64,000 nt of DNA from Torpedo marmorata. Lineage: Eukaryota. Each line of letters starts with the position of its first letter. Position 1 is the first letter of the stretch. The stretch is from assembly GCA_977017645.1 (NCBI GenBank), contig OZ360237.1, forward strand, positions 19,158,001-19,222,000, in the 5' to 3' direction. The translations under genes and the position numbers were made by a program. The notes under the pieces are model-generated. The model had not been told where the DNA came from and did no database searches. It worked only from the letters and a program-made list of their open reading frames with translations. Shown here in pieces: positions 22,697 through 50,875 of this stretch.

Positions 22697-24564
22697 CCGT
22701 ATATTTCGGCGTATAAGTCGACCGGCAGATAAGTCGACCCCCTTTTTCAGCCTCATTTTAATGGTTTTATGGTATATCCGGCGTATAAGTCGATCCCCAA
22801 AAATCGCGATGCCTGAGATGTTGCGCATTGACCGGCGTATAAGTCGACCCTCAAAAAACGCGATGATTGAGCTGCTGGGCGTTGACCGGCGTATAGGTCG
22901 ACCAACAATGATCGCGCTGATTGAGCTGCTGGGCGTTGGCTGGAGGTGATTGTTATCATGGAGGGTCAATTGAAACGACGAAAGTATGAGGCGAGTTTTA
23001 AATTGAAAGTTATAGAAATGGCCAAGAAAACCAACAACTGTGCTGCTGCAAGAAAATTTGATATATACGAGAAGTTGGTAAGAGATTGGAGGAAGAAAGA
23101 AGATACTTTAAGAAAAATACCAAAAAGGCAATGTTCAATGAGAAGAGGAATCACTCGTTGGCCAGAGTTGGAAAATCACGTCGCAACATGGGTATGTGAA
23201 CAGAGGCAAGATTGCTACATAGTCACCCAAAATAAAATAAGAACATTTCCACTGAAGTGGGCAAAGTCGCACCCAGAACTCAGTAATGATTTTGAAGCTA
23301 CAGTAGGCTGGTGCAACCGTTTCATGAACAGGAAAAATCTGGTATTACGACAAAAAACTAAAATTGCTCAGAAACTACCAAAAGATCTTGATCATAAAGT
23401 TGTAAGTTTTCACCAGTTTATTTTACGTAACCGGCAGAAACACAAGTTTGCATTGGCAAATATTGGAAACATGGACGAAACCCCCATGAATTTTGACATG
23501 ATAGGCAATAGAACAGTGGAATGGAAAGGTGTGAAAACTGTGCAAACGAGGAGTACAGGACATGAAAGGACCAGGTTTACCGTGGTGTTATCGTGCATGG
23601 CCGACGGGACAAAGTTAAGACCCATGGTAATCTTCAAACGCAAACTTAAACCTAAAATAAATTTCCCAGCAGGTATTTTTGTACATTTTCATGAAAAAGG
23701 ATGGTTGGATGAAAATGGTGTAAAACTATGGATAGACAATGTGTGGAACAGGCGGCCAGGCGGTTTATGCAAGGAACGGAGTTTGCTGGTCTGGGATATG
23801 TTTCGTAGCTACTTAACTGAGAAGACTAAAAGTAGATTAGCACAACATAATACTTACATGGCGGTTATCCCGGGTGGTTTGACGTCTATATTGCAACCTC
23901 TTGATGTCTGCTTGAACAAGCCATTCAAAGACCATGTGCGTGAAGAGTGGAATACATGGATGTCGAGTGCAGAAAAATCCTTTACAAAAGGCGGGGCAAT
24001 GCGTGCTGCATCGCTTGATGTGCTGTGTGACTTCATGCTCAAGGCATGGGACAAAGTGAAAGTAGAGACTATAATAAAATCGTTTAAAAAGTGTGGTATC
24101 TCTTGTGCAATTGATGGCACGGAAGATGATTTACTGTGGGACACTGACGACGAAGCTGAAGACGCCTCATCAGATACAGACTGGGACCCGTACGATGACT
24201 GTTTAAACAGTGAGACCCCAGATGTGCTTGCCGAGATCTTTGCCTCAGACGATGATAGCGAAAGTGATTTTGAAGGGTTCTAAATGTCTTGTTGTTTTCA
24301 ATAAAAATGTCAATGAAAATTTGTTGCAGTCGGGTTTTTTTTTTGGTTTTTCAAGGGTCGACTTATACGCCGAATCGTGTTTTCAGGGGTCGACTTATAC
24401 GCCGAATCGTGTTTTCTGGGGTCGACTTATACGCCGAATCGGCGTGAACTCGATTTTGAGCTGATTTTAAGGTCTCAAAAGTATATCCGGCGTATAAGTC
24501 GACCCCCGTTTTTTGAGACATTTTTGAGGGTTTCAAGGGTCGACTTATACGCCGAAATATATGG
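22697..24564 (+). mobile_element. Full-length pogo-superfamily (Passer/POGK-like, DD35D) DNA transposon
   Basis: 27-bp TIRs CCGTATATTTCGGCGTATAAGTCGACC (1 mismatch), TA TSD at 22695-22696 and 24565-24566, intact transposase ORF. Confidence 0.95.
22958..24283 (+). CDS. pogo transposase (Brinker-type DBD, CENP-B HTH, DDE_1 with DD35D, acidic tail), 441 aa
   Basis: RRKYEASFKLKVIE; ATVGWCNRFMNR; NMDETPM…LVWD-35 aa-D(VCLNKPFK); no stops or frameshifts. Confidence 0.93.
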   Translation: MEGQLKRRKYEASFKLKVIEMAKKTNNCAAARKFDIYEKLVRDWRKKEDTLRKIPKRQCSMRRGITRWPELENHVATWVCEQRQDCYIVTQNKIRTFPLKWAKSHPELSNDFEATVGWCNRFMNRKNLVLRQKTKIAQKLPKDLDHKVVSFHQFILRNRQKHKFALANIGNMDETPMNFDMIGNRTVEWKGVKTVQTRSTGHERTRFTVVLSCMADGTKLRPMVIFKRKLKPKINFPAGIFVHFHEKGWLDENGVKLWIDNVWNRRPGGLCKERSLLVWDMFRSYLTEKTKSRLAQHNTYMAVIPGGLTSILQPLDVCLNKPFKDHVREEWNTWMSSAEKSFTKGGAMRAASLDVLCDFMLKAWDKVKVETIIKSFKKCGISCAIDGTEDDLLWDTDDEAEDASSDTDWDPYDDCLNSETPDVLAEIFASDDDSESDFEGF

Positions 24565-37591: not shown

Positions 37592-40500
37592 TGTGGTAAA
37601 CCACTGTATGTGTGTTGTGGGGCTGGGGATAGGTTTGGACATGCCCTGCTGACTGTCCCGGTGACCCCTCTCACAATCCCCTTGAATAAAGGCCATTGTG
37701 CCACAACTCCTCCCCTCAGTCCGGGACAGATCAGCAGCTCGAATGTAGCTCCATTCTATATCTAATAAAAGCCTTTCAGTACAATACTACTTCCAGTCTT
37801 TTGGGAGTCATTGATAGGTGTATCAATTTTATTGGATATATTGTCAAATGGAGAGCGTCCTGAGACTGGACAAGCTGGACATCGATCCGCTGGCTCCAGA
37901 CGCCAGTAACGCTTTCGAACTCTGGTTAACCTGTTTCTAATCGTTTTTAAGGATGATCAAAGTGGAAGACGAGGACAGAAAACGCATGGTCCTCGTCTCT
38001 AGGGTAAGCCCCAGAGTCTACTCGACGATCCGAGATTTTCAGTCTTACGGGGACGCCATGGATGCCTTAAAACGGCTGTACATAATGCCTGTGAACTCAG
38101 TATACGCGAGGCACAGGCTAACGACGCGGCAGCAGCGGCCCGGGGAGCGATCACGGAATTCGTACGGGACATACAGTCGCTCGTACGGGCGTGCGATTGC
38201 AGGGCGCTGACGGCTGAGGAGCATGCAGAGCTGTTGGGGAGAGACACTTTCGTCACGGGGATAAGGTCAGTATATGTGCGCCAGCGGCTGCTGGAGCATG
38301 CTGACCTGACCTTTCGTTCGGCCGTTCAAATGGCCCATACGCTGGAGGCCGCGCTGCGGAACTCAGACGCTATGCAAGCGCGTGACCTCCAGCAGGCGCC
38401 ATGGATGGCCCTGACCCCCCACCCTGCCAGCGATCCGACTACCGCCGCCATCAGCCGCGACCTAACTGCCGCCGCCGCCGCCAGACGTGACCCGACTACC
38501 GCCGCCATCAGCCGCGAGCCCGAGAAATGTTATTTCTGCGGGCTCGAGAAACACCCCCGAAGACGCTGCCCTGCCCGAGACGCGACCTGCTCCAGCTGTG
38601 GCAAGAAAGGCCACTTCGCAAAGGCCTGCCGCTCAATGCCGCGAGCGGGTCCGAGCAGCGCCGCGTGCGAGATTCGGGGGCGACCATCTTACTTTTCGTC
38701 ACTTCCGGCATCCTATCCGCCCGCGGTTGCCAACACGTGCGAAGAATGGGGGTGGCCATCTTGGACCTCGGCATTTCCGGCGCCACCATCTTACTGCTCC
38801 GATGCCAACACGTGCGATCCACGGAGGCGGCCATCTTCTTCAACTCCGACGTCGGATCAAGATTACGAGCCTACACTGGCGTCGGTGACGCTCGATCAGA
38901 GTGCACCCCATCAATTATCGCGATCGATGATGGACATCCTGGTTGGAGGACACAAAACAAACTGCCTGTTCGACACAGGCAGTACAGAGAGTTTCATTCA
39001 CCCCGACACGGTACTGCGATGCCGGTAAGCCAAAGGGTTACCATGGCTTCCGGGTCGCACACAACAGACATCCGGGGGGGTTGTGTAGCGACGATTGTAG
39101 TACAGGGCACGGAATATCGGGACTTCTCGCTACTAGTTATGCCTCGACTGTGTGCGCCTGTACTACTGGGACTCGAGTTCCAGAGTCACTTACAGAGTGT
39201 TACAATGCAGTACGACGGGCCCCTTCCAGCGATTACCGTTGGTAACCACCAGTACCTTAAAAATACATCCCAGACTACCTGCGGCCTCTCCACCCTCAAC
39301 ATCTCTCCCCCATCGCTATTCGCCAACCTGACCACAGACTGTAAACCTGTGGCGACCAAGAGCAGGCGATACAGCGCAGGGGACAGGACATTTATTAATT
39401 CGGAGGTGAGGCGATTTCTTGGGGAAGGGATCATTGAACCAAGCACAAGTCCCTGGAGGGCCCAGGTAGTCGTGGTAAAGAATGGGAGTAAGAATAGGAT
39501 GGTGGTGGACTATACTCAGACGATTAACAGGTTCACGCAGCTGGACGCATACCCCCTTCCACGCATTGCGGATATGGTGAACGAGATAGCGCAATACAAG
39601 CTATTTTCTACCATAGACCTCAAATCGGCCTACCACCGGCTCCCTATTCGCCGGGAAGACCGCGCTTACACTGCCTTCGATGCGGACGGCAGGCTTTATC
39701 ATTTCCTGCGAGTCCCCTTTGGCGTCACTAACGGGGTATCCGTCTTCCAGAGGGAGATGGACAGGATAGTGGACCAGTTCGGTCTCAAAGCCACTTTCCC
39801 GTACCTGGACGACATCACTATCTGTTGTCACGATCGCCAGGACCACGATAACAACCTCCGGAAGTTCCTCCAGGCGGCCAAAGCACTTAACCTCACGTAC
39901 AATAAGGATAAGTGCGTGTTCGGGACCACCCGACTCGCCATCCTGGGGTGTGTCGTGGAGAACGGGGTCATCGGCCCCGACCCCGATCGCATGCGCCCCC
40001 TGTTGGAACTACCGCTTCCCCCACACCCTCAAAGCCCTCAAAAGGTGCTTGGGCTTCTTTTCGTACTACGCCCAGTGGGTCCCCAATTACGCAGATAAGG
40101 CCCGACCCCTAGTCAAGTCCACCACGTTTCCCCTTGCAGCGGAGGCAAGTGAGGCTTTCAGCCTCATAAAAGGGGACATTGCTAGAGCTGCAATGCATGC
40201 GGTGGACGAGTCCACTCCCTTCCAGGTAGAGAGTGACGTGTCTGACTTCGCACTGGCTGCTACCCTCAACCAGGCGGGAAGACCGGTGGCGTTCTTCTCC
40301 CGTACCCTCCAAGGCCCAGAAATTCGGCACTCTGCGGTGGAGAAAGAGGCCAAGGCCATAGTGGAAGCTATTCGGCACTGGAGGCACTATCTCGCCGGCA
40401 AAAGGTTTACTCTGCTGACTGACCAACGCTCAGTAGCGTTCATGTTTAACAATCAGCAGCGGGGTAAAATCAAAAAAGATAAAATCATGAAGTGGAGAAT

Positions 40501-42044
40501 CGAACTCTCCACCTACAACTACAACATACTGTACCGGCCCGGGAAGCTCAATGAGCCCTCCGATGCTCTATCCCGAGGGACGTGCGCTAGCGCACAGATC
40601 GACCGGCTGTACGCCCTCCACTGCCACCTCTGCCACCCCGGAGTTACCAGGCTGTTCCACTTTGTGAAGGCCCGTAACTTACCCTACTCCCTAGAGGAGG
40701 TCAAGACAATGACCAGCAGCTGCCGGGTCTGCGCTGAGTGCAAACCGCAATTCTATCGCCCTGACAAGGCACAGCTGGTCAAGGCCACCTGCCCCTTCGA
40801 GCGACTCAGTGTCGACTTCAAGGGCCCCCTCCCCTCCACCGACCGCAATGTGTACTTTCTCAATGTGATTGATGAGTACTCGCGGTTTCCCCTTTGCTAT
40901 CCCCTGCCCCGATACCTCGGCCATATCCGTCATTAAAGCTCTTCGCAAGATATTTACCCTATTTGGTTTCCCCAGCTATATACATAGCGACCGGAGATCC
41001 ACGTTCATGAGCGAAGAGCTACGACAATATCTGCTGGCCAGGGGTATTGCCACTAGTAGGACCACGGCATACAATCCACGGGGTAACGGACAAGTGGAAA
41101 GGGAGAACACCACTGTCTGGAAGGCCACGCTCTTGGCCCTCAAGTCCAAGGGATTGCCGGTCTCCCGCTGGCAAGAAGTCCTCCCCGAAGCCCTCCACTC
41201 TATTCAGTCCCTGTTGTGTACTTCTACAAACGCAACTCCTCACGAAAGACTCTTTTCCTTCCCTAGGAAGTCGACCACCGGGACCACCCTACCCGCATGG
41301 CTGACGTCCCCAGGACCGGTGCTGCCCCGCAAGCACCTTAGGAGTAATAAATATGCACCGATGGTTGAAAGGGTTCAGTTAGCCCATGCAAACCCCCAGT
41401 ACGCCTACGTGGTCTTCCCTGATGGGCGGGAAGACACCATCTCCATACGGGACCTGGCGCCCGCAGGAGCGCCGGAAACTGCCCTTGAACACCCCCTTAT
41501 TACAATTTCTCACCCCAACACGACACCACACCCTCCAACAATTTCAATGTTACCGGATGTTCCGGTACCGCAAATCAGACAGGAGGCAGCTCTACCGCCT
41601 CCCCCATCACCACAGGTACTATCGCCCACCCCATCACCACAGGTACTATCGTCCACCCCATCACCACAGGTACTGCGCAGATCGCAGCGTCGGACTCGAC
41701 CGCCTGACCGACTTGATCTGTAACTGTATATATCTTTGTACATAGTTCTGTAATGTTTTATTAGTGTTCACTTCACCCCGCTGGACTCTTTTTAAAAAAA
41801 AGGAGGGGTGAATGTGGTAAACCACTGTATGTGTGTTGTGGGGCTGGGGATAGGTTTGGACATGCCCTGCTGACTGTCCCGGTGACCCCTCCCACAATCC
41901 CCTTGAATAAAGGCCATTGTGCCACAACTCCTCCCCTCAGTCCGGGACAGATCAGCAGCTCGAATGTAGCTCCATTCTATATCCAATAAAAGCCTTTGTA
42001 CAATACTACTTCCAGTCTTTTGGGAGTCATTGATAGGTGTATCA
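37592..42044 (+). mobile_element. Full-length Gypsy (Mag-like) LTR retrotransposon, mildly degenerate
   Basis: LTRs at 37592-37825 and 41813-42044 (TG…CA; 2 substitutions and a 2-bp indel seen), TSD ACGAT, purine tract AAAAGGAGGGGTGAA, and gag-PR-RT-RH-IN order. Confidence 0.96.
37848..41723 (+). pseudogene. Gypsy gag-pol with a stop and frameshifts
   Basis: Gag knuckles CYFCGLEKHPRRRC and CSSCGKKGHFAKAC; protease LFDTGS; RT FPYLDD; RNase H ESDVSD…AVEKEA; integrase HCHLCHPG…CRVC, SVDFKGP, HSD, NGQVER. Confidence 0.92.
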
Positions 42045-42199
42045 ACGATATGCCCTATTTTCTGGGAACACGTTTCCCCCCCCCCCCCCCATAACATGGG
42101 AGTTGCCTGCTCTTGCCATTCACGGAATTTTGACAACCAGTATCAGTGTCAAGCAGAAAGGTTATCCCTCCTGCTCAGGCATGCAATTTGATTGGACCA

Positions 42200-43689: not shown

Positions 43690-44127
43690 TTGCTGTCCTG
43701 GTTGGAGAGTTCCAGAAATTCACCACCATCTGAGTGCAGAACATTTTCCCTATCTCAGCTCTGAACAGCCTTTCTCAACTGTATCCTCTAGTTCTTCTTT
43801 TTCTTAGTTAGGGGTAACATGCATCTAGCCCATCAAACAATTGAAGAATCTTGTAAGTTTTGTTGAGATCACGTCCGACTCTTTAAAACTCTAAATAAAA
43901 TACAGTCATAGACAACTTGATATCTCCTCAGATGGCAGCCCACTATCTCTGTAATCAGGCCTGTGATTCTTTGTTGTACTCTCTCAGTAGCAAGTACATA
44001 ATTTTTAAGGTAAGAAGACCAGAACTGCATACAATACTTCAGATGTGGTCTCATCAAGACACTAAACAACTGAGATAAAACTTCATGATCCTACAATCAA
44101 AACCCCTTATAATAAAAGTTAACATAC
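43690..44127 (-). mobile_element. Old CR1 fragment (continues at ~50149-50800 beyond the BEL insertion)
   Basis: LMRPHLKYCMQFWSSYLK…ERVQQRITGLI; KDLGVLVH on the far side. Confidence 0.7.
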
Positions 44128-44525
44128 TATTACGGTGACTTCGATCCACCAATAGTCACCTGGAGGCTAAGTGTGGTCCTTGTCTTTGACGCGTTTTAAT
44201 CAATTTACTAACAAAGTCCAATATGTTCAAAAACCTTTATTTACACACATGACTTGCAGTAATCTTCAATGACTTTAATATAAACAGTTCTTGTAAACGA
44301 TGTATGATGAGTTCCTTTAAATAGTTCTTTAAACAATTCCAAAACGATATGAAAACACTGTAGAACGATGTAAAAGTTATAAAACGATATAAAACGGTCA
44401 ATAAAGATGTGGAGACCTCACTCACCCTCCAAACATCTTATTCTTTCCTTTTCTCTCTCTCTCTGCTTGAATATTCACGCTTCCTCCGTCACTCCTAATG
44501 GCTCTGCGCACCCTCCACCGCGCAT

Positions 44526-44607
44526 ACTACAATTCCCAGCCTCCCACGCGCACAATGACGTCATTCCATACTGCGCATGCGCCCGTCGGCACTCCAGCGC
44601 ATGCGCA
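44526..44607. promoter_or_regulatory. Cluster of ZNF143/THAP11, CRE and NRF1 motifs in the BEL LTR (repeated at ~49831-49912)
   Basis: ACTACAATTCCCAGC at 44526-44540, TGACGTCA at 44556-44563, TGCGCATGCGC at 44572-44582 and GCGCATGCGCA at ~44597-44607. Confidence 0.65.
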
Positions 44608-44614
44608 GAGCACA

Positions 44615-44775
44615 GAACGGGCCGATGACGGCCCACAGACAACGCGAGCTCTCCGAACGGGCCGAGGACGGCCTACCGACAACGCGAGCGCTCCGAACGG
44701 GCCGAGGATGGTCTACCGACAACGCGAGCGCTCCGAACGGGCCGAGGACGGCCTACAGAACAACGCGAGCGCTCC
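44615..44775. repeat. 40-bp CpG-rich tandem repeat, ~4 units, in the BEL LTR U3 (also ~49920-50080)
   Basis: Unit GAACGGGCCGAGGACGGCCTACCGACAACGCGAGCGCTCC. Confidence 0.9.
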
Positions 44776-45039
44776 AAGGCCCGACGAGACATCGGAGCGC
44801 CGCAACAACTGTAAGTTAACGAGCCTACGGCTCTTACACCGGCCCCTAATTATTATAATTAGACGTAATGTCTTGAATAATAATTACACTATAAATAATA
44901 ATAACCATAACATACAAAACAATACAAATCTTCTTTCTTCCTTCTTCATAAATCTAGAGTTTACCATAACTCTGATTCAACAAAAGTCTGTAACCTGTGA
45001 AATATACAACAACAAATAAAGTCAGTTTATATTTATCAA

Positions 45040-45220
45040 AGTTCCTCCGTCTCCAACAAACGACAGACCTTGTTAATAGGTCTGTTTAGAAAACCAGTCT
45101 TAACTTTAATTCGCACTTGACGCACAAGTCCTCTTTGTCTTGAAAAGTCTCAATAATCTTTTCCAAGTAACCAGGAATTTCTTGAAGTTGAACCATCCAT
45201 AACAATCACAATGTCTCTCC
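45040..45220 (-). pseudogene. Frameshifted BEL integrase C-terminal (DUF5641-like) remnant
   Basis: Manual translation: DIVIVMDGSTSRNSWLLGK/IIETFQD/RGLVRQVRIKVKTGFLNRPINKVCRLLE. Confidence 0.8.
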
Positions 45221-45257
45221 AAAGTTCTTCCATCTCTATAATCTTTGAGTTAAAACG

Positions 45258-47123
45258 TCAACCAGTAAACCTCAAATCCTCCTCAGACAAAATAGATACA
45301 GTTTTTCTTTTGAATTTAACATAAGGCACTTCTTCAGCATGTCGTTTCACTTTATTCCTTTCTTCAGTATTCCACTTCTCATGTGAAGAATTTAAACTCT
45401 TAGAATTAGAATTAGAATATTTATCTGATTCTTTCAATTTTAAACAGGTCTGTTTAACCACTCTGGTTTCTATTGCTCTTTCCTGCAATTCTAAATCCAA
45501 TTTTGCAACTTTCAATTCAGTCTCAGCTCCTTCCGAGAAATTAATTATTTGTTCTGAAGTCAAAATATCATGTGATACATGGATATTTTCATTGTCAATC
45601 CTGTTGCGGCAAACTTGAAATTTTTTAATTTCTTCATCTTGTTTGTTACATTTTTGCAATGCAATATCACAATCTTTCTGTATTGTTAATTGTTTTGTGT
45701 TATTAACCAATAACTTGTTCTCTTTTAAAACATTAATCTCTTCCTCCAACCTTTTACATTGTGATAATGCTGAATCTCTTTCCTCGATAACTGTATTCAT
45801 TTCTTCAGCAGTTATTCTTTTCTTCCGCTTTCTGACTTTGCGAGTTTTACTTACAATTAAATCTTTCTGTTTACTGTTTTCTTGATTATCTAATATTTCC
45901 AATTCCCCTTTCAACATTTTGTTCTTTGAATTCAATTGCATTAAATTATCGTTCATATTATTCTTTATTCCATCAGCACAATTTTCTGTGTTCTCCAGTT
46001 TTACATCACATTGCAATAATTCTTCATTAGCTTTGTCTGTTGTAATCTCTGAACTACAAAATCTACATTCAGATTTGTTTTCAATCACTTGTTTTATTCT
46101 TGTATCTGATTCAATTACACATGAATGATCAATAGTATTATTTGCAACATCTAATACTTCACTTTCATCCATTTCTGACGAAATTAATTCCTTCAATGTT
46201 GTTTTAAATATCATTGATTTATTTTCACATTGATCTGTTTTCTTTTCTTCATAAGTGATTTTCTTATTCACGGTTTTTTGCTCTTCGCTTAACTCTTCAA
46301 CTTTCTCAACCGAAATTCTATTAATATTTATCGCTAACTGTTCCTGAGCAATATCATTATTTCTTTCCAATGGTCCATTGATTGTCCAACCAAACTTGGT
46401 TCTAATAGCGTAAGGTCCATTCCTTTTACTCTCTATTACTTCTTTCGGTTCCAAAACCTTTGGCACATCTGAACCAATCAGCATTTCTATCTTAGAATTA
46501 ATTTCAGGTAAATAAACCTTCCACAGATAAGCTAAATGATGGATATCCCTTCGATGAGGAATATTTCCTTCATTCACAGGCATAGTCTTCTGAGTATATA
46601 CACTTGGAAGATCACAAAATTTTTTGTCATCCAATCCAGCAACCTCTAAGCCTGAAACAATGTTAGTTTCAACAATCTTTTCTTGTCCCATGGTTTTTAA
46701 CATAATTTTTGATCTTCTTCCTTGAATATTAAGTTTATTCATTAGTCCTTCCGTGCAAAAAGATGCAGTGCTGCCTGGGTCTAGAAATGCATATGTTTTT
46801 ACTATTACATCCCCTTTCTTGGCCTTGACTTGTACAGGCACTATTGAAAGTTTGCAGTTATCCACACCGGCCCCAGTAAGACCACTTGTCTGAACCGAGG
46901 TTATAACATTATTTTCTGTTGTTTCCTTTGTTTCTGTTTGCTCTTTTTCCAATTCCTTGTTTCTGTTATGGATATGCAAAATTCTAGGATGTTTCAAATT
47001 GCATATGTTACAATTAATTCGCTTCTCGCAGTTTTTACTGATGTGCCCTTTACACAGACAGCTAAAACATATTCCATTTTCCTTTAAGAAAGCGATCTTT
47101 TCCTTATGTTCCTTCTTTTCCAA
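45258..47123 (-). CDS. BEL/Pao zinc knuckles and aspartic protease fused to a MIPOL1-like coiled-coil region
   Basis: CFSCLCKGHISKNC, CNICNLKHPRILH, AFLDPGSTASF, LIGSD and PYAIRTKFGWTINGP, then ~340 aa of non-pol sequence including RITAEEMNTVIEERDSALSQCKRLEEEI. Confidence 0.8.
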   Translation of the reverse strand: MEKKEHKEKIAFLKENGICFSCLCKGHISKNCEKRINCNICNLKHPRILHIHNRNKELEKEQTETKETTENNVITSVQTSGLTGAGVDNCKLSIVPVQVKAKKGDVIVKTYAFLDPGSTASFCTEGLMNKLNIQGRRSKIMLKTMGQEKIVETNIVSGLEVAGLDDKKFCDLPSVYTQKTMPVNEGNIPHRRDIHHLAYLWKVYLPEINSKIEMLIGSDVPKVLEPKEVIESKRNGPYAIRTKFGWTINGPLERNNDIAQEQLAININRISVEKVEELSEEQKTVNKKITYEEKKTDQCENKSMIFKTTLKELISSEMDESEVLDVANNTIDHSCVIESDTRIKQVIENKSECRFCSSEITTDKANEELLQCDVKLENTENCADGIKNNMNDNLMQLNSKNKMLKGELEILDNQENSKQKDLIVSKTRKVRKRKKRITAEEMNTVIEERDSALSQCKRLEEEINVLKENKLLVNNTKQLTIQKDCDIALQKCNKQDEEIKKFQVCRNRIDNENIHVSHDILTSEQIINFSEGAETELKVAKLDLELQERAIETRVVKQTCLKLKESDKYSNSNSKSLNSSHEKWNTEERNKVKRHAEEVPYVKFKRKTVSILSEEDLRFTG

Positions 47124-49047
47124 TCGTAAAACACATTTCTAAAGTATGTCCACCTTTACAGAACAAACAACTCTTTTCATTAGGCAAACTTTCCTTTTCC
47201 TTATTTATAACTGACACATTAGTAGCATATGTACTCCTTTTCACTTTCAGACTAGACTGTGTGTTAGACTTCCTTACATCTTTGCCCATTGAATTATCTC
47301 TGGCATTTCCATATAGTGGATCTGTTTCAACGTACACCCGTCGTTCAAGAAAATTTACCAAATCCTTTAAGGTAGTTTTTCGACCGTAATCTACTTGTAA
47401 ATCACAAGCCAAATCCCTCCATCTATCCCATACCTTGTAAGGTAATTTTTCTAAAATGATTCGCATATTACTATGCACATCAAGCTCACGAATACTATCG
47501 ATTTCTTCCATAGCATTACAACATCCTCTTAAAAACAAAGTATATTCTTGCAGAGCCTTTACATCATTTTGTTTTATTGATGTCCATTTAAGAGCTTTAT
47601 CCATATAAGCTAAAGCAATTCGATGCTTGTTGCCAAAATATTGTTCCAATAAAGCCTTAGCTTTGTCTAATCCTCTTCCTGAAGACATTTGTTTACAACT
47701 TTTTACCAGTTCTTTTGGATGTCCCTTTGTGAACATTTCCAAATAATAAAGACATTCATCACGATCTTGGCATTTATCTTCAATATTGCGTTTGAAAGAT
47801 CTCATAAATGATTGATATTGAAGTGGATCACCATCAAAAGTTTGTATCTCTTTCTTGGGTAAAGAAGAGAGAGACTGTAACTGAAACAATGATGCAGCAA
47901 TTTCATTTTGTCTTTCCTTGGACGACAATACATTGCTCTGTTCACCGTCTCTTGTTGCATGCAATGTATCTGGAAACCTCACTGGTGTAGTTTCTTCCAT
48001 ATTTCTGATGCTTGACTCATATAACAAAGAATTTACTTCGTTCGACCGGACCCAAGCCGCAGCTTTGCTTTCAGATGTTACTAATGGTACATGTGACTCG
48101 ATACCAATATGCTCTTGAAAGGTTTGTCCTTGTATATGTAAGTTTTGTATCCTTGGTTCTAAAATATCTATCCTTTTGGTTGGTTTCTTTTCCTGTGACT
48201 CCTTTTTTAAATATGACCTTTTATTATCAGACAATTTAGATAATTTACTGCTAGCACCAGATACCATTGAGCCTTCTATTGCTTTCTTTTCTGCTTTGGC
48301 AATAGCAATGTTTGCTTCCAGCTCCTGTTGTTCTTTTTTCTGCCTTAGCTGCTCCTTCTTTTGTCTTAGCTGCTCCATTAGCTGCTCCTCCTTTTGTCTT
48401 AGCTGCTCCTTTAGCTGCTTCTCATTTTGTCTTAGCTGCTCCTCCTCTTCTTCCAAAATATATTTATCCTGAAGCATTTTTTGTTGTGCAAGAAGAGCGG
48501 CCAATTTAACATCAATCTTTGTACGTGATGACGCAGAACTTGAAGTACGAGAAACTCTGGAGCTCGAACCAGAACTTCTTTTGCTTCTCCTGCTTTCTGC
48601 ATTTGAGACACTGTCACTTGCTTGTATTTCGTCCTGCAGTTCATATGCTGTCTTCATACTTACCTCTTTATCCAATTTAAATTGTATATCCTTTGCATCT
48701 TCAACCACTTTAATTTCTTCAACATTTGGTGACACAATTTCAGCCATTTCCAAGTTATCTTCTTGTTCATCTAATGAAGCTGCCTCTTCATCCTTTGCCA
48801 GCTTCAATCTTTCGATAAGAACCTTTTTATTTCCACTTATGTCCTTTTTCAGTCGCTTCAATTCTTCTTTAATATCCGAAACCTTCATGTCTTCAATACG
48901 TTGGTCCTCAACAGCAACATCAGCGGTTGCTGCGTCAGCTGCTGATATATCAGTAGCTGCTGTATCAGTGGCTGCTGCGGCCATTTTACTCGTCTTGTTC
49001 CTCTTTCCTTCAAGCATACACAACACTAGCCAAACAACAGTCTCCAA
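47104..49047 (-). CDS. BEL/Pao Gag with N-terminal SAP-like domain, coiled coil and DUF1759-like capsid region
   Basis: MKVSDIKEELKRLKKDISGNKKVLIERL (SAP-like); LPKKEIQTFDGDPLQYQSF (BEL Gag); CLFCKGGHTLEMC. Likely start is the ATG at 48984. A single-base frameshift in a T run joins it to the next ORF. Confidence 0.85.
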   Translation of the reverse strand: METVVWLVLCMLEGKRNKTSKMAAAATDTAATDISAADAATADVAVEDQRIEDMKVSDIKEELKRLKKDISGNKKVLIERLKLAKDEEAASLDEQEDNLEMAEIVSPNVEEIKVVEDAKDIQFKLDKEVSMKTAYELQDEIQASDSVSNAESRRSKRSSGSSSRVSRTSSSASSRTKIDVKLAALLAQQKMLQDKYILEEEEEQLRQNEKQLKEQLRQKEEQLMEQLRQKKEQLRQKKEQQELEANIAIAKAEKKAIEGSMVSGASSKLSKLSDNKRSYLKKESQEKKPTKRIDILEPRIQNLHIQGQTFQEHIGIESHVPLVTSESKAAAWVRSNEVNSLLYESSIRNMEETTPVRFPDTLHATRDGEQSNVLSSKERQNEIAASLFQLQSLSSLPKKEIQTFDGDPLQYQSFMRSFKRNIEDKCQDRDECLYYLEMFTKGHPKELVKSCKQMSSGRGLDKAKALLEQYFGNKHRIALAYMDKALKWTSIKQNDVKALQEYTLFLRGCCNAMEEIDSIRELDVHSNMRIILEKLPYKVWDRWRDLACDLQVDYGRKTTLKDLVNFLERRVYVETDPLYGNARDNSMGKDVRKSNTQSSLKVKRSTYATNVSVINKEKESLPNEKSCLFCKGGHTLEMCFTIGKEGT

Positions 49048-50875
49048 TGGACCAGCGGCAGCAATTCCAATCTGTGTTCTTACTTGCTAAAGATACACAG
49101 AAGGAGTCCACAGACTTATGCCTACCACTTCAAATGACTGTAATGTGCTGCAATCCACAAACGAGTTTCAACCACAACATCCGTCACTAATATCACTGAT
49201 TTTCCAAAAATAGTTTCTCCAACGTATTTATAGGACACTTTACTATAAGATTTGAAGCTTTAAATCCCTCTCTGGCTGTTATTCATGGCAGATGGAAGTG
49301 GATTACAAACTGCCCCCAACTCGAGGCATCTCCAAGATGGCCACCATTTTATATCAGTCCAAAGCACAGAGAGTTTTTTCTATCTTCTTTCTTACAAACT
49401 TCTGTTCCAAACAGCCAGCCCTTTATTGACAATTTTACGGTGACTTCGATCCACCAATAGTCACCTGGAGGCTAAGTGTGGTCCTTGTCTTTGACGCGTT
49501 TTAATCAATTTACTAACAAAGTCCAATATGTTCAAAAACCTTTATTTACACACATGACTTGCAGTAATCTTCAATGACTTTAATATAAACAGTTCTTGTA
49601 AACGATGTATGATGAGTTCCTTTAAATAGTTCTTTAAACAATTCCAAAACGATATGAAAACACTGTAGAACGATGTAAAAGTTATAAAACGATATAAAAC
49701 GGTCAATAAAGATGTGGAGACCTCACTCACCCTCCAAACATCTTATTCTTTCCTTTTCTCTCTCTCTCTGCTTGAATATTCACGCTTCCTCCGTCACTCC
49801 TAATGGCTCTGCGCACCCTCCACCGCGCATACTACAATTCCCAGCCTCCCACGCGCACAATGACGTCATTCCATACTGCGCATGCGCCCGTCGGCACTCC
49901 AGCGCATGCGCAGAGCACAGAACGGGCCGATGACGGCCCACAGACAACGCGAGCTCTCCGAGCGGGCCGAGGACGGCCTACCGACAACGCGAGCGCTCCG
50001 AACGGGCCGAGGATGGTCTACCGACAACGCGAGCGCTCCGAACGGGCCGAGGACGGCCTACAGAACAACGCGAGCGCTCCAAGGCCCGACGAGACATCGG
50101 AGCGCCGCAACAACTGTAAGTTAACGAGCCTACGGCTCTTACACATACCATTTTCCGTCCTCATTATTTGCTTCACCTGCATGTAGGCTTTAAGTAATTT
50201 GTGCACAAGCACACCTAGGTCTTTGAACATCAACACTACCCAAACACAACATTTAAAAATACTCTGCATTTCTGTTCTATGCACCAAAGAAAATAATGTC
50301 ACATTTTTCCACCTTACTTTCCATGAACCATGTTCATTCTTGTCTCTACTCACGAACCTTTCTACTGTTAGCACCTTTGGAAATATGACATTTCATCTGC
50401 TCAGTCAAATGTAGATTGTGAAAAGCCAAGGTCAAGCACTGATCCTTGTAGTACCCCACAAGTTACAATCTGACAAACTGAAAAGGACCCATTTATTTCA
50501 TCTTATCCTTTACAACACAGTGAGGCCATTCAGCCTCCAGAGTCCGTACAAGTTCCCAGCACATGCCCATCAAATCCCCTTTGACTTTTTTTTTGGAGCA
50601 TTGAAAACGCAGACGAAATGTACAAATTCCAGAAAGACAGCACTCGCTTTTTTCTTCTCGGTCCATGTCAGTACAATACTCGAAATTCCCTTTGCTGTAA
50701 CCTCGTTAAACAGCCTCCATGTTTGACCTTATCGTATGCCTTCTGGACATTTAAATACACCACATCTGATTGTTCCCCATTGTATATTAATTTTGTTAGA
50801 TTGTTAAGAAGCAATAGCATCTTAACAATCAAACAAAATTAATATACAATGGGGAACAAACAAGCAGTAACATAA

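Follow-up and report, generated by a model that had tools for sequence, protein, structure and literature searches.

The DNA analysed here (hereafter the window) is a stretch of 64,000 nucleotides of Torpedo marmorata. A retrotransposon copy occupies positions 44128-50144 on the minus strand of the window (Table 1). Its LTRs show only 2 mismatches per 712 positions, and a 5-bp target-site duplication (GTATG) lies on either side of the element. A target-site duplication was seen in 19 of the 28 elements checked (14/21 elements with the insert described below, hereafter cargo elements, and 5/7 helper elements), the misses including truncated or mis-anchored ends. Gag is of the BEL/Pao type, with a DUF1759 domain and three zinc knuckles, and the gag ORF is 93-99% identical in DNA to that of helper elements. 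The ORF at 45258-47138 (-) comprises 626 codons, namely the zinc knuckles, the protease motif and then 344 more codons. The match of the protease to DUF1758 was weak in the Pfam scan (E 0.019, under the cut-off). No Pfam match to RT, RNase H or integrase was found in the 344 codons 3' of the protease. A Pfam scan of the 344-residue insert gave no matches of any kind, and the same copy of Pfam was blank on MIPOL1 itself too. The first-pass annotation of this DNA, which had described about 340 open codons without these domains, a broken integrase tail and almost identical LTRs, was thus correct on all three points. The order RT, Pao RNase H (PF05380) and integrase is absent from the cargo elements and present in the helper family; the element is therefore a non-autonomous derivative.

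Table 1. Features of the retrotransposon copy in the window (positions of the window).
Feature	Position	Strand	Basis
Target-site duplication GTATG, 5' copy	50145..50149	-	
5' LTR, 712 bp, begins TGTAAG, holds a 40-bp tandem repeat	49433..50144	-	LTR pair comparison
gag ORF: SAP domain, coiled coil and DUF1759 capsid-like domain	47104..49086	-	PF02037 E 7e-8, PF03564 E 7e-6
Frameshift private to the window copy, splitting the single family ORF	47126..47133	-	Comparison with siblings
Zinc knuckles and BEL/Pao aspartic protease, INRISV linker at its end	46283..47138	-	Motif LDPG at 46784-46773
BRCA1 piece, spliced: 149-nt exon joined to start of large central exon	45857..46282	-	Protein and host-exon matches
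MIPOL1 exons f (part), g and h, spliced	45604..45863	-	Protein and host-exon matches
Non-colinear joint of back-splice type: MIPOL1 exon h (end) joined to upstream exon b (start)	45603..45604	-	
MIPOL1 exons b and c, shortened by an in-frame deletion of 81 nt	45450..45603	-	
Elongin A (ELOA) remnant, spliced; contains family ORF stop (45258-45260)	45241..45459	-	
Integrase C-terminal tail, broken by stops, 93-96% identity to helper DNA	45039..45217	-	
Polypurine-tract-like ATTAGGGGCCGG, directly before the 3' LTR, common to helper	44840..44851	-	
3' LTR, last bases TA rather than CA, like the helper family	44128..44839	-	LTR comparison
Target-site duplication GTATG, 3' copy	44123..44127	-	

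Three minor features of the window may be mentioned here. Directly after the 5' LTR (49415-49434) there is no tRNA-type primer site starting with TGG, and the siblings read TAGTCAATAAAG. At 38000-42150 (+) a GC-rich Gypsy-type element interrupted by frameshifts was recognised by eye from its gag, protease, RT, RNase H and integrase motifs. A 452-codon open frame at 22925-24283 (+) resembles a pogo/Tigger DDE transposase.

Host exons in place of the pol core

The codons that follow the protease consist of sequence from three host genes in spliced form: the first ~140 are derived from BRCA1 and the last ~60 from Elongin A, and the MIPOL1 cargo overall spans 45450-45863 (-). The insert had been annotated as a captured MIPOL1-like coiled coil. 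The MIPOL1 identity is real; it accounts, however, for only about 40% of the insert, the rest being BRCA1 and Elongin A. When the 344 residues were searched against the database, 55 matches were obtained among proteins of 189-602 aa, all with the MIPOL1 Pfam pair, and every named protein among them was MIPOL1. The top match was from sawfish (E 2.3e-17, 49% identity, 25% of the query covered). In a search among longer proteins, insert residues 4-147 matched BRCA1 (58% in Narcine, E 3e-31; 48% in sawfish). The nearest named proteins to the insert were those of Narcine bancroftii. The third piece was recognised via older copies of the family as Elongin A (PF06881, E 1e-15; PDB 8oev_M, E 5.9e-40), and PF06881 was in frame with the ORF in both of the two older ORFs scanned (E 1e-15). 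It is worth noting that the Narcine BRCA1 model (P0057) has ~180 N-terminal residues that lack a RING domain and look retrotransposon-derived, which is likely to be an annotation error.

The donor genes have one genomic locus each in the 6.22-Gb assembly: MIPOL1 at G000:C40:64.32-64.64 Mb (a locus of 342 kb), BRCA1 at G000:C61:25.49-25.53 Mb and ELOA at G000:C41:38.99-39.02 Mb. MIPOL1 and BRCA1 segments outside the captured parts gave a single genome match each, so the assembly is not doubled. Identity between the cargo and the ELOA gene on C41 is 89-99%. Another Elongin A-like gene, likewise split by introns, was seen at G000:C25:175318134-175337048 (-).

The fullest older copies hold about 2 kb of cargo. 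In these copies BRCA1 is represented by exons X (in part), Y and Z and by 402 nt from its large exon, MIPOL1 by part of exon f, exons g, h, b and c and 18 nt of d, and ELOA by five exons or exon parts. Identity to the host exons is mostly 87-99%, and the introns are removed at 3 splice joints in BRCA1, 4 colinear joints in MIPOL1 and 4 in ELOA. The window copy has shortened pieces with 70-89% identity to the host. The cargo maps to host exons and lacks the introns at every exon joint, as expected from the capture of host RNA proposed in the first-pass annotation. It lies in the sense orientation and replaces part of the internal ORF, and each of the three pieces is read in its native frame, continuous with the pol frame. 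The BRCA1/MIPOL1 joint shows a few shared purines, and 19 nt of other sequence separate MIPOL1 from ELOA. Since the same set of junctions is found across copies, the cargo has a single origin. The 19 nt form an in-frame stretch between the MIPOL1 exon d piece and ELOA in five copies (L065, L068, L071, L075 and L078) and could be the trace of a fourth template.

Several trivial explanations were considered and rejected. Chance similarity between coiled coils is ruled out by DNA identity to host exons of up to 98%, and capture of intron-containing genomic DNA by the loss of introns at exon joints. The BRCA1 match does not come from a transposable element inside a gene model, since the matched segments are genuine exons, both in the host gene and in the BRCA1 genes of sawfish and skate. 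The insert is not a one-off, the family being multi-copy, and an assembly artefact was likewise rejected as the source of the cargo element.

The composition of the cargo could be explained by a hypothesis that host RNAs were packaged in a BEL/Pao particle and copied in by template switches of RT, as in the template-switch capture model described for LTR elements (PMC5131818). The product of such a capture would have lost pol and retained an open Gag-protease-cargo frame.

Copy number, helpers and the gag-protease backbone

The cargo family comprises about 25,000 copies. With up to 2 mismatches allowed, a cargo 27-mer had 24,732 genome matches (control, 0) and recovered all 39 retrieved copies within this limit. 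The genome search for siblings proposed at first pass thus revealed a multi-copy family, and an insert confined to this copy is ruled out. If the matches are mostly near full length, the family would amount to an estimated 146 Mb or so, or 2.3% of the genome. A 27-mer from the helper RT gave 2,306 genome matches. Since this probe misses older helpers (it matched 15 of 33 RNase H loci), they are undercounted, and the ratio of about 11 cargo copies to 1 helper copy is approximate. Two local arrangements were also observed. Five cargo matches with a 4,964-bp period at G000:C1:1498294-1518176 represent a tandem array of the element, and four cargo copies lie within introns of the donor MIPOL1 gene (G000:C40:64.34-64.50 Mb of the 342 kb locus).

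Seven of the eight RNase H-bearing elements that were fetched have the LTR type of the window copy and 89-95% of its gag-protease. In four of the eight a single intact ORF of 2,054-2,134 aa was found, with RT, Peptidase_A17, rve and DUF5641, and two of these four have LTR pairs that are 99.8 and 100% identical. The presence of a helper family with the same LTRs bears out the earlier suggestion of recent mobilisation in trans, for which the intact helpers would provide RT and integrase. The canonical ends of LTRs are TG...CA. The older cargo copies with clear ends have CA, and TG...TA ends are found in the young cargo copies and the helpers. The active BEL/Pao lineage therefore shows an LTR end in TA (window 44128-44132; helpers L127-L129 and L132), and its integrase may have changed its end preference.

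The gag-protease of older cargo copies is about 73% identical to that of today's helper, and that of young copies 93-99%. In a tree of the zinc knuckle-protease region (27 rows, midpoint root, with L134 as the sole older autonomous row), the cargo backbones form a ladder whose final group unites 7 cargo copies, all young, with 6 helpers. This group is supported at 100/96, apart from the older cargo copies; the gag-protease backbone of young cargo thus sits among the helpers. The backbone dS to the helper is at most 0.015, and the cargo dS to the host is 0.17-0.29. The LTR end of one cargo copy is that of the newest helpers (H4). All cargo copies have their junctions in common and none can supply pol, which requires that cargo and helper have recombined. 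We infer that the cargo was passed on while gag, protease and LTRs were replaced by newer versions through repeated recombination with helpers. Co-packaging with helper RNA would provide the occasion for this renewal of the backbone.

It was also predicted that the element encodes a Gag-protease-cargo polyprotein. The window copy cannot make it in one piece because of the frameshift near 47130, but siblings can. Nine of 23 young cargo copies, 18 of which had been picked as best matches, have a single ORF of 1,216-1,354 aa. No Gag-cargo fusion protein was present among the 87 database matches examined. The element and its cargo are covered by three sequencing contig sets (two organism labels, one guessed to be RNA), which are silent on expression.

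There is another possible interpretation of these relationships, in which the two partners form a two-part system. The cargo elements would be the main source of Gag-protease for a single-ORF helper that makes Gag and Pol in equal amounts, and both would gain. The ladder of cargo backbones up to the present helpers, the intact and near-identical gag-protease of both partners and the excess of about 11 to 1 are consistent with this. The same data, however, are accounted for by helper recombination together with a selfish benefit in cis, and the division of labour would work equally well with a stop codon immediately behind the protease. We consider this interpretation unlikely.

Reading frame and cargo protein

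Selection on the cargo was assessed in 20 young copies, with 323 codons aligned to those of the host genes as the reference. Of these copies, 18 were best matches to the insert of the window and the set is therefore not a random sample. Fixed changes amounted to 141.5 nonsynonymous and 43.5 synonymous, giving an overall dN/dS of 0.98 (BRCA1, 0.77; MIPOL1, 1.32; ELOA, 0.93). Private changes (50 N / 20 S) were no different from fixed ones (p 0.42). The number of identical residues was 205, compared with a neutral expectation of 198 +/- 8 under a model that includes the C>T and G>A bias seen in the data. About a quarter of the cargo C and G sites are now T and A, and the cargo at 45258-46292 of the window is 44.6% A, compared with 40.4% in the host pieces.

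The cargo has no fixed stop, against 10.5 expected (0/5,000 simulations), and stops make up 3 of 73 private changes. The shared indels within the ORF are 285, 24, 120, 3, 45, 81, 195, 3, 3 and 111 nt long, allowing for private single-base indels in two old reference copies. All ten are multiples of 3, as are the deletions common to old subfamilies (87, 282 and 111). The in-frame retention noticed at first pass is therefore a property of the family. For capsid, zinc knuckle and protease, the comparison of old and young copies gave dN/dS of 0.27-0.45, indicating purifying selection (one apparent 'young' RT/RH row proved to be flanking DNA of another element and was left out). Neutral drift of the amino acids, the lack of fixed stops and the in-frame indels together show that the reading frame is under retention, but the MIPOL1 protein sequence is not. 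The earlier idea that the MIPOL1 coiled coil was kept for its function is thus at odds with amino acids that change at the neutral rate, and purifying selection on the captured protein was not detected, one short window aside. In this 25-codon window of the MIPOL1 core, 22/25 residues are kept (N 3.5 and S 5.5; one of about 15 windows, with an uncorrected p of 0.035), a possible exception that leaves room for a small role of the protein.

Would the cargo protein nevertheless be useful? The MIPOL1 core helix might form a tail for oligomerisation or host binding, or the BC-box region of Elongin A in older copies might recruit Elongin B/C, and the protease may free the domain. All three pieces are joined in their native frames, the Elongin A domain is in frame in the older ORFs scanned, and the 25-codon window is conserved beyond its neighbours. 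The native frames, however, are also simply the open ones, and the residue identity of the cargo as a whole does not differ from the neutral expectation. In the young family the Elongin A domain lies past the stop or is lost, and large in-frame deletions (45 and 81 nt) cut the MIPOL1 coiled coil. A useful cargo protein seems to us improbable.

We infer instead a benefit in cis, in which translation through the cargo would favour the element's own RNA. Escape from nonsense-mediated decay would favour it likewise. An analogy is offered by the mouse IAP IΔ1 element, in which pol is lost internally and a fused ORF is reported to act in cis, with new insertions exceeding those of its helper (PMC6466679). 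The ray family is likewise non-autonomous, with internal loss of pol, a fused ORF and a frame held open under selection. IΔ1 is, however, a plain deletion in an ERV, whereas the gap in the ray element is filled with host cDNA.

The non-colinear MIPOL1 joint and related systems

The ETELK segment of the insert aligns to MIPOL1 aa 262-294, and the order of the MIPOL1 segments is therefore permuted, as the first-pass annotation had noticed. It had attributed this order to a later rearrangement. This part did not hold: the permuted order is an exon-exact joint of back-splice type between exons h and b, already present in the oldest copies. In the host gene, exon h has the 3' end TACTACAG, followed by GT, and exon b begins with CAGGGCTG, preceded by AG. 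The end of h and the start of b have the same phase, and exons b to h sum to 780 nt. The last base of h abuts the first base of b in 16/16 older full copies, and in 13/16 the joint is letter-exact over 14 nt. A 20-mer spanning the joint had 230 exact genome matches (control, 0), and the version in the window 1,770.

All captured MIPOL1 sequence falls within exons b to h, no sequence of exons a or i being found in the cargo copies, and in the host gene exons b to h are flanked by introns of 49.6 and 61.8 kb. Inverted repeats in these two introns are not in excess (56, versus 60 direct). An exon-exact reversed joint and sequence confined to the circularised exons, the marks of a circRNA retrocopy, are thus both present. 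Exonic MIPOL1 circles are on record in mouse and human (PMC9888537, PMC8176118, PMC8783515). These facts suggest that the MIPOL1 template was most probably a back-spliced circular RNA of 780 nt. Since 590 of the 780 nt were captured, no repeated lap is available as proof of rolling copying.

The joint could also have come from a linear template, by a backward jump of RT, from a trans-spliced RNA with repeated exons, or from an old genomic duplication of b to h. Three nucleotides (AG|C) are common to the a|b and h|i joints of the linear mRNA, and an RT template jump at this microhomology could therefore make an identical h|b sequence; LTR elements are described as changing templates at short matches (PMC5131818). 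A frog (Discoglossus) MIPOL1 model (P0065) has tandem repeats of the exon-f region, and the report of circRNA-derived pseudogenes cautions that other routes yield such joints (PMC4897178). However, when backward jumps were enumerated on the linear mRNA, only 26 of 699,865 products ran from an exon end to an exon start, and 9 of 15,159 when homology of at least 3 nt was required, so that the chance of an exon-exact joint in a random backward jump is 4e-5 to 7e-4. Moreover, each exon occurs only once in the 342 kb host locus, and exons a and i contributed nothing. Trans-splicing and back-splicing are indistinguishable because the DNA looks alike. Given this and the 3-nt homology, the circle is likely rather than proven, and a linear template appears distinctly unlikely.

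Taken together, the window copy belongs to a very large BEL/Pao family with spliced, in-frame pieces of BRCA1, MIPOL1 (likely from a circular RNA) and Elongin A in place of its RT/RNase H/integrase core. The family is likely to be moved by helper enzymes, and its ORF is likely to be open since translation aids the packaging or stability of its own RNA, and not for the function of a host domain. One of the packaged templates would have been a MIPOL1 circle rather than another non-colinear RNA. A bolder version, which we regard as rather doubtful, is that a circular RNA was packaged, copied by BEL/Pao and fused with BRCA1 and Elongin A, and that the cassette became a standing second genome segment, recombined from helper to helper and supplying Gag-protease in excess, at about 11 to 1 and around 2% of the 6.2-Gb genome.

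Gene capture by LTR elements is known already from Bs1, circRFWD2 and IAP IΔ1; the ray family appears to be a further form of it, on a far larger scale. The maize Bs1 element has pieces of three unlinked host genes (PMC13317346, PMC5131818), joined internally into one ORF as in the ray family. The ray family, however, is a vertebrate BEL/Pao family with about 25,000 copies, the cargo lies behind an intact Gag-protease, one piece is non-colinear, and the family is still mobile with an identified helper. The mouse circRFWD2 pseudogenes, 33 high-confidence copies for which the mechanism was left open (PMC4897178), share with the ray cargo an exon-exact reversed joint in DNA, the absence of poly(A), LTRs at the flanks and the presence in several copies. 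In the ray the joint is in frame within the ORF of a defined element, and the family is about 750 times larger. LTR-mediated retroposition in animals is described as replacing part of an internal ORF by partial spliced mRNA on the sense strand, with several parents possible and further rounds of copying, and one mosquito case is a BEL element (PMC5131818). The ray cargo likewise consists of sense-strand parts of spliced mRNAs within an internal ORF. The cases described there, however, are small sets of young retrocopies, whereas the ray cargo is a long-lived in-frame family and far bigger; the word 'circular' is absent from the main text of that paper. Cattle ERVK C/D, MusD/ETn and KoRV/recKoRV are pairs in which the central segment is exchanged for unrelated sequence and the flanks are common with a competent partner, the partners recombine and the defective type is dominant (PMC10924933). 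The ray pair resembles them in all these respects. The cattle D type has no ORFs and a filler of old retroelement DNA, whereas the filler of the ray consists of host exons with the ORF open. In the mainly open-access literature that was searched, neither this family nor such a combination was described.

It has been proposed for captured genes in maize elements that the host pieces give cover from small-RNA silencing (PMC13317346). In the ray, piRNAs directed at the BRCA1, MIPOL1 or Elongin A pieces would strike the host mRNAs as well, the open frame would be secondary, and the ratio of about 11 to 1 would agree with such cover; this is nevertheless very unlikely, since the most numerous young copies are 11-30% away from the host exons and strongly biased towards C>T and G>A changes, the old form that still nearly matches the host is less common (230 exact joints), and the absence of stops is left unexplained.

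The present family ties a joint of circular-RNA type to a named retrotransposon with a known helper, a point left open by the circRNA-pseudogene paper, and indicates that such a capture can grow into one of the large repeat families of a genome. Its thousands of dated copies provide a natural series that separates selection on an open frame from selection on a protein sequence. Tens of thousands of sequences derived from BRCA1, MIPOL1 and Elongin A are thereby present in a vertebrate germ line, where small-RNA silencing of the family would potentially conflict with these genes. In these rays the cargo copies will also muddle gene annotation and read mapping.
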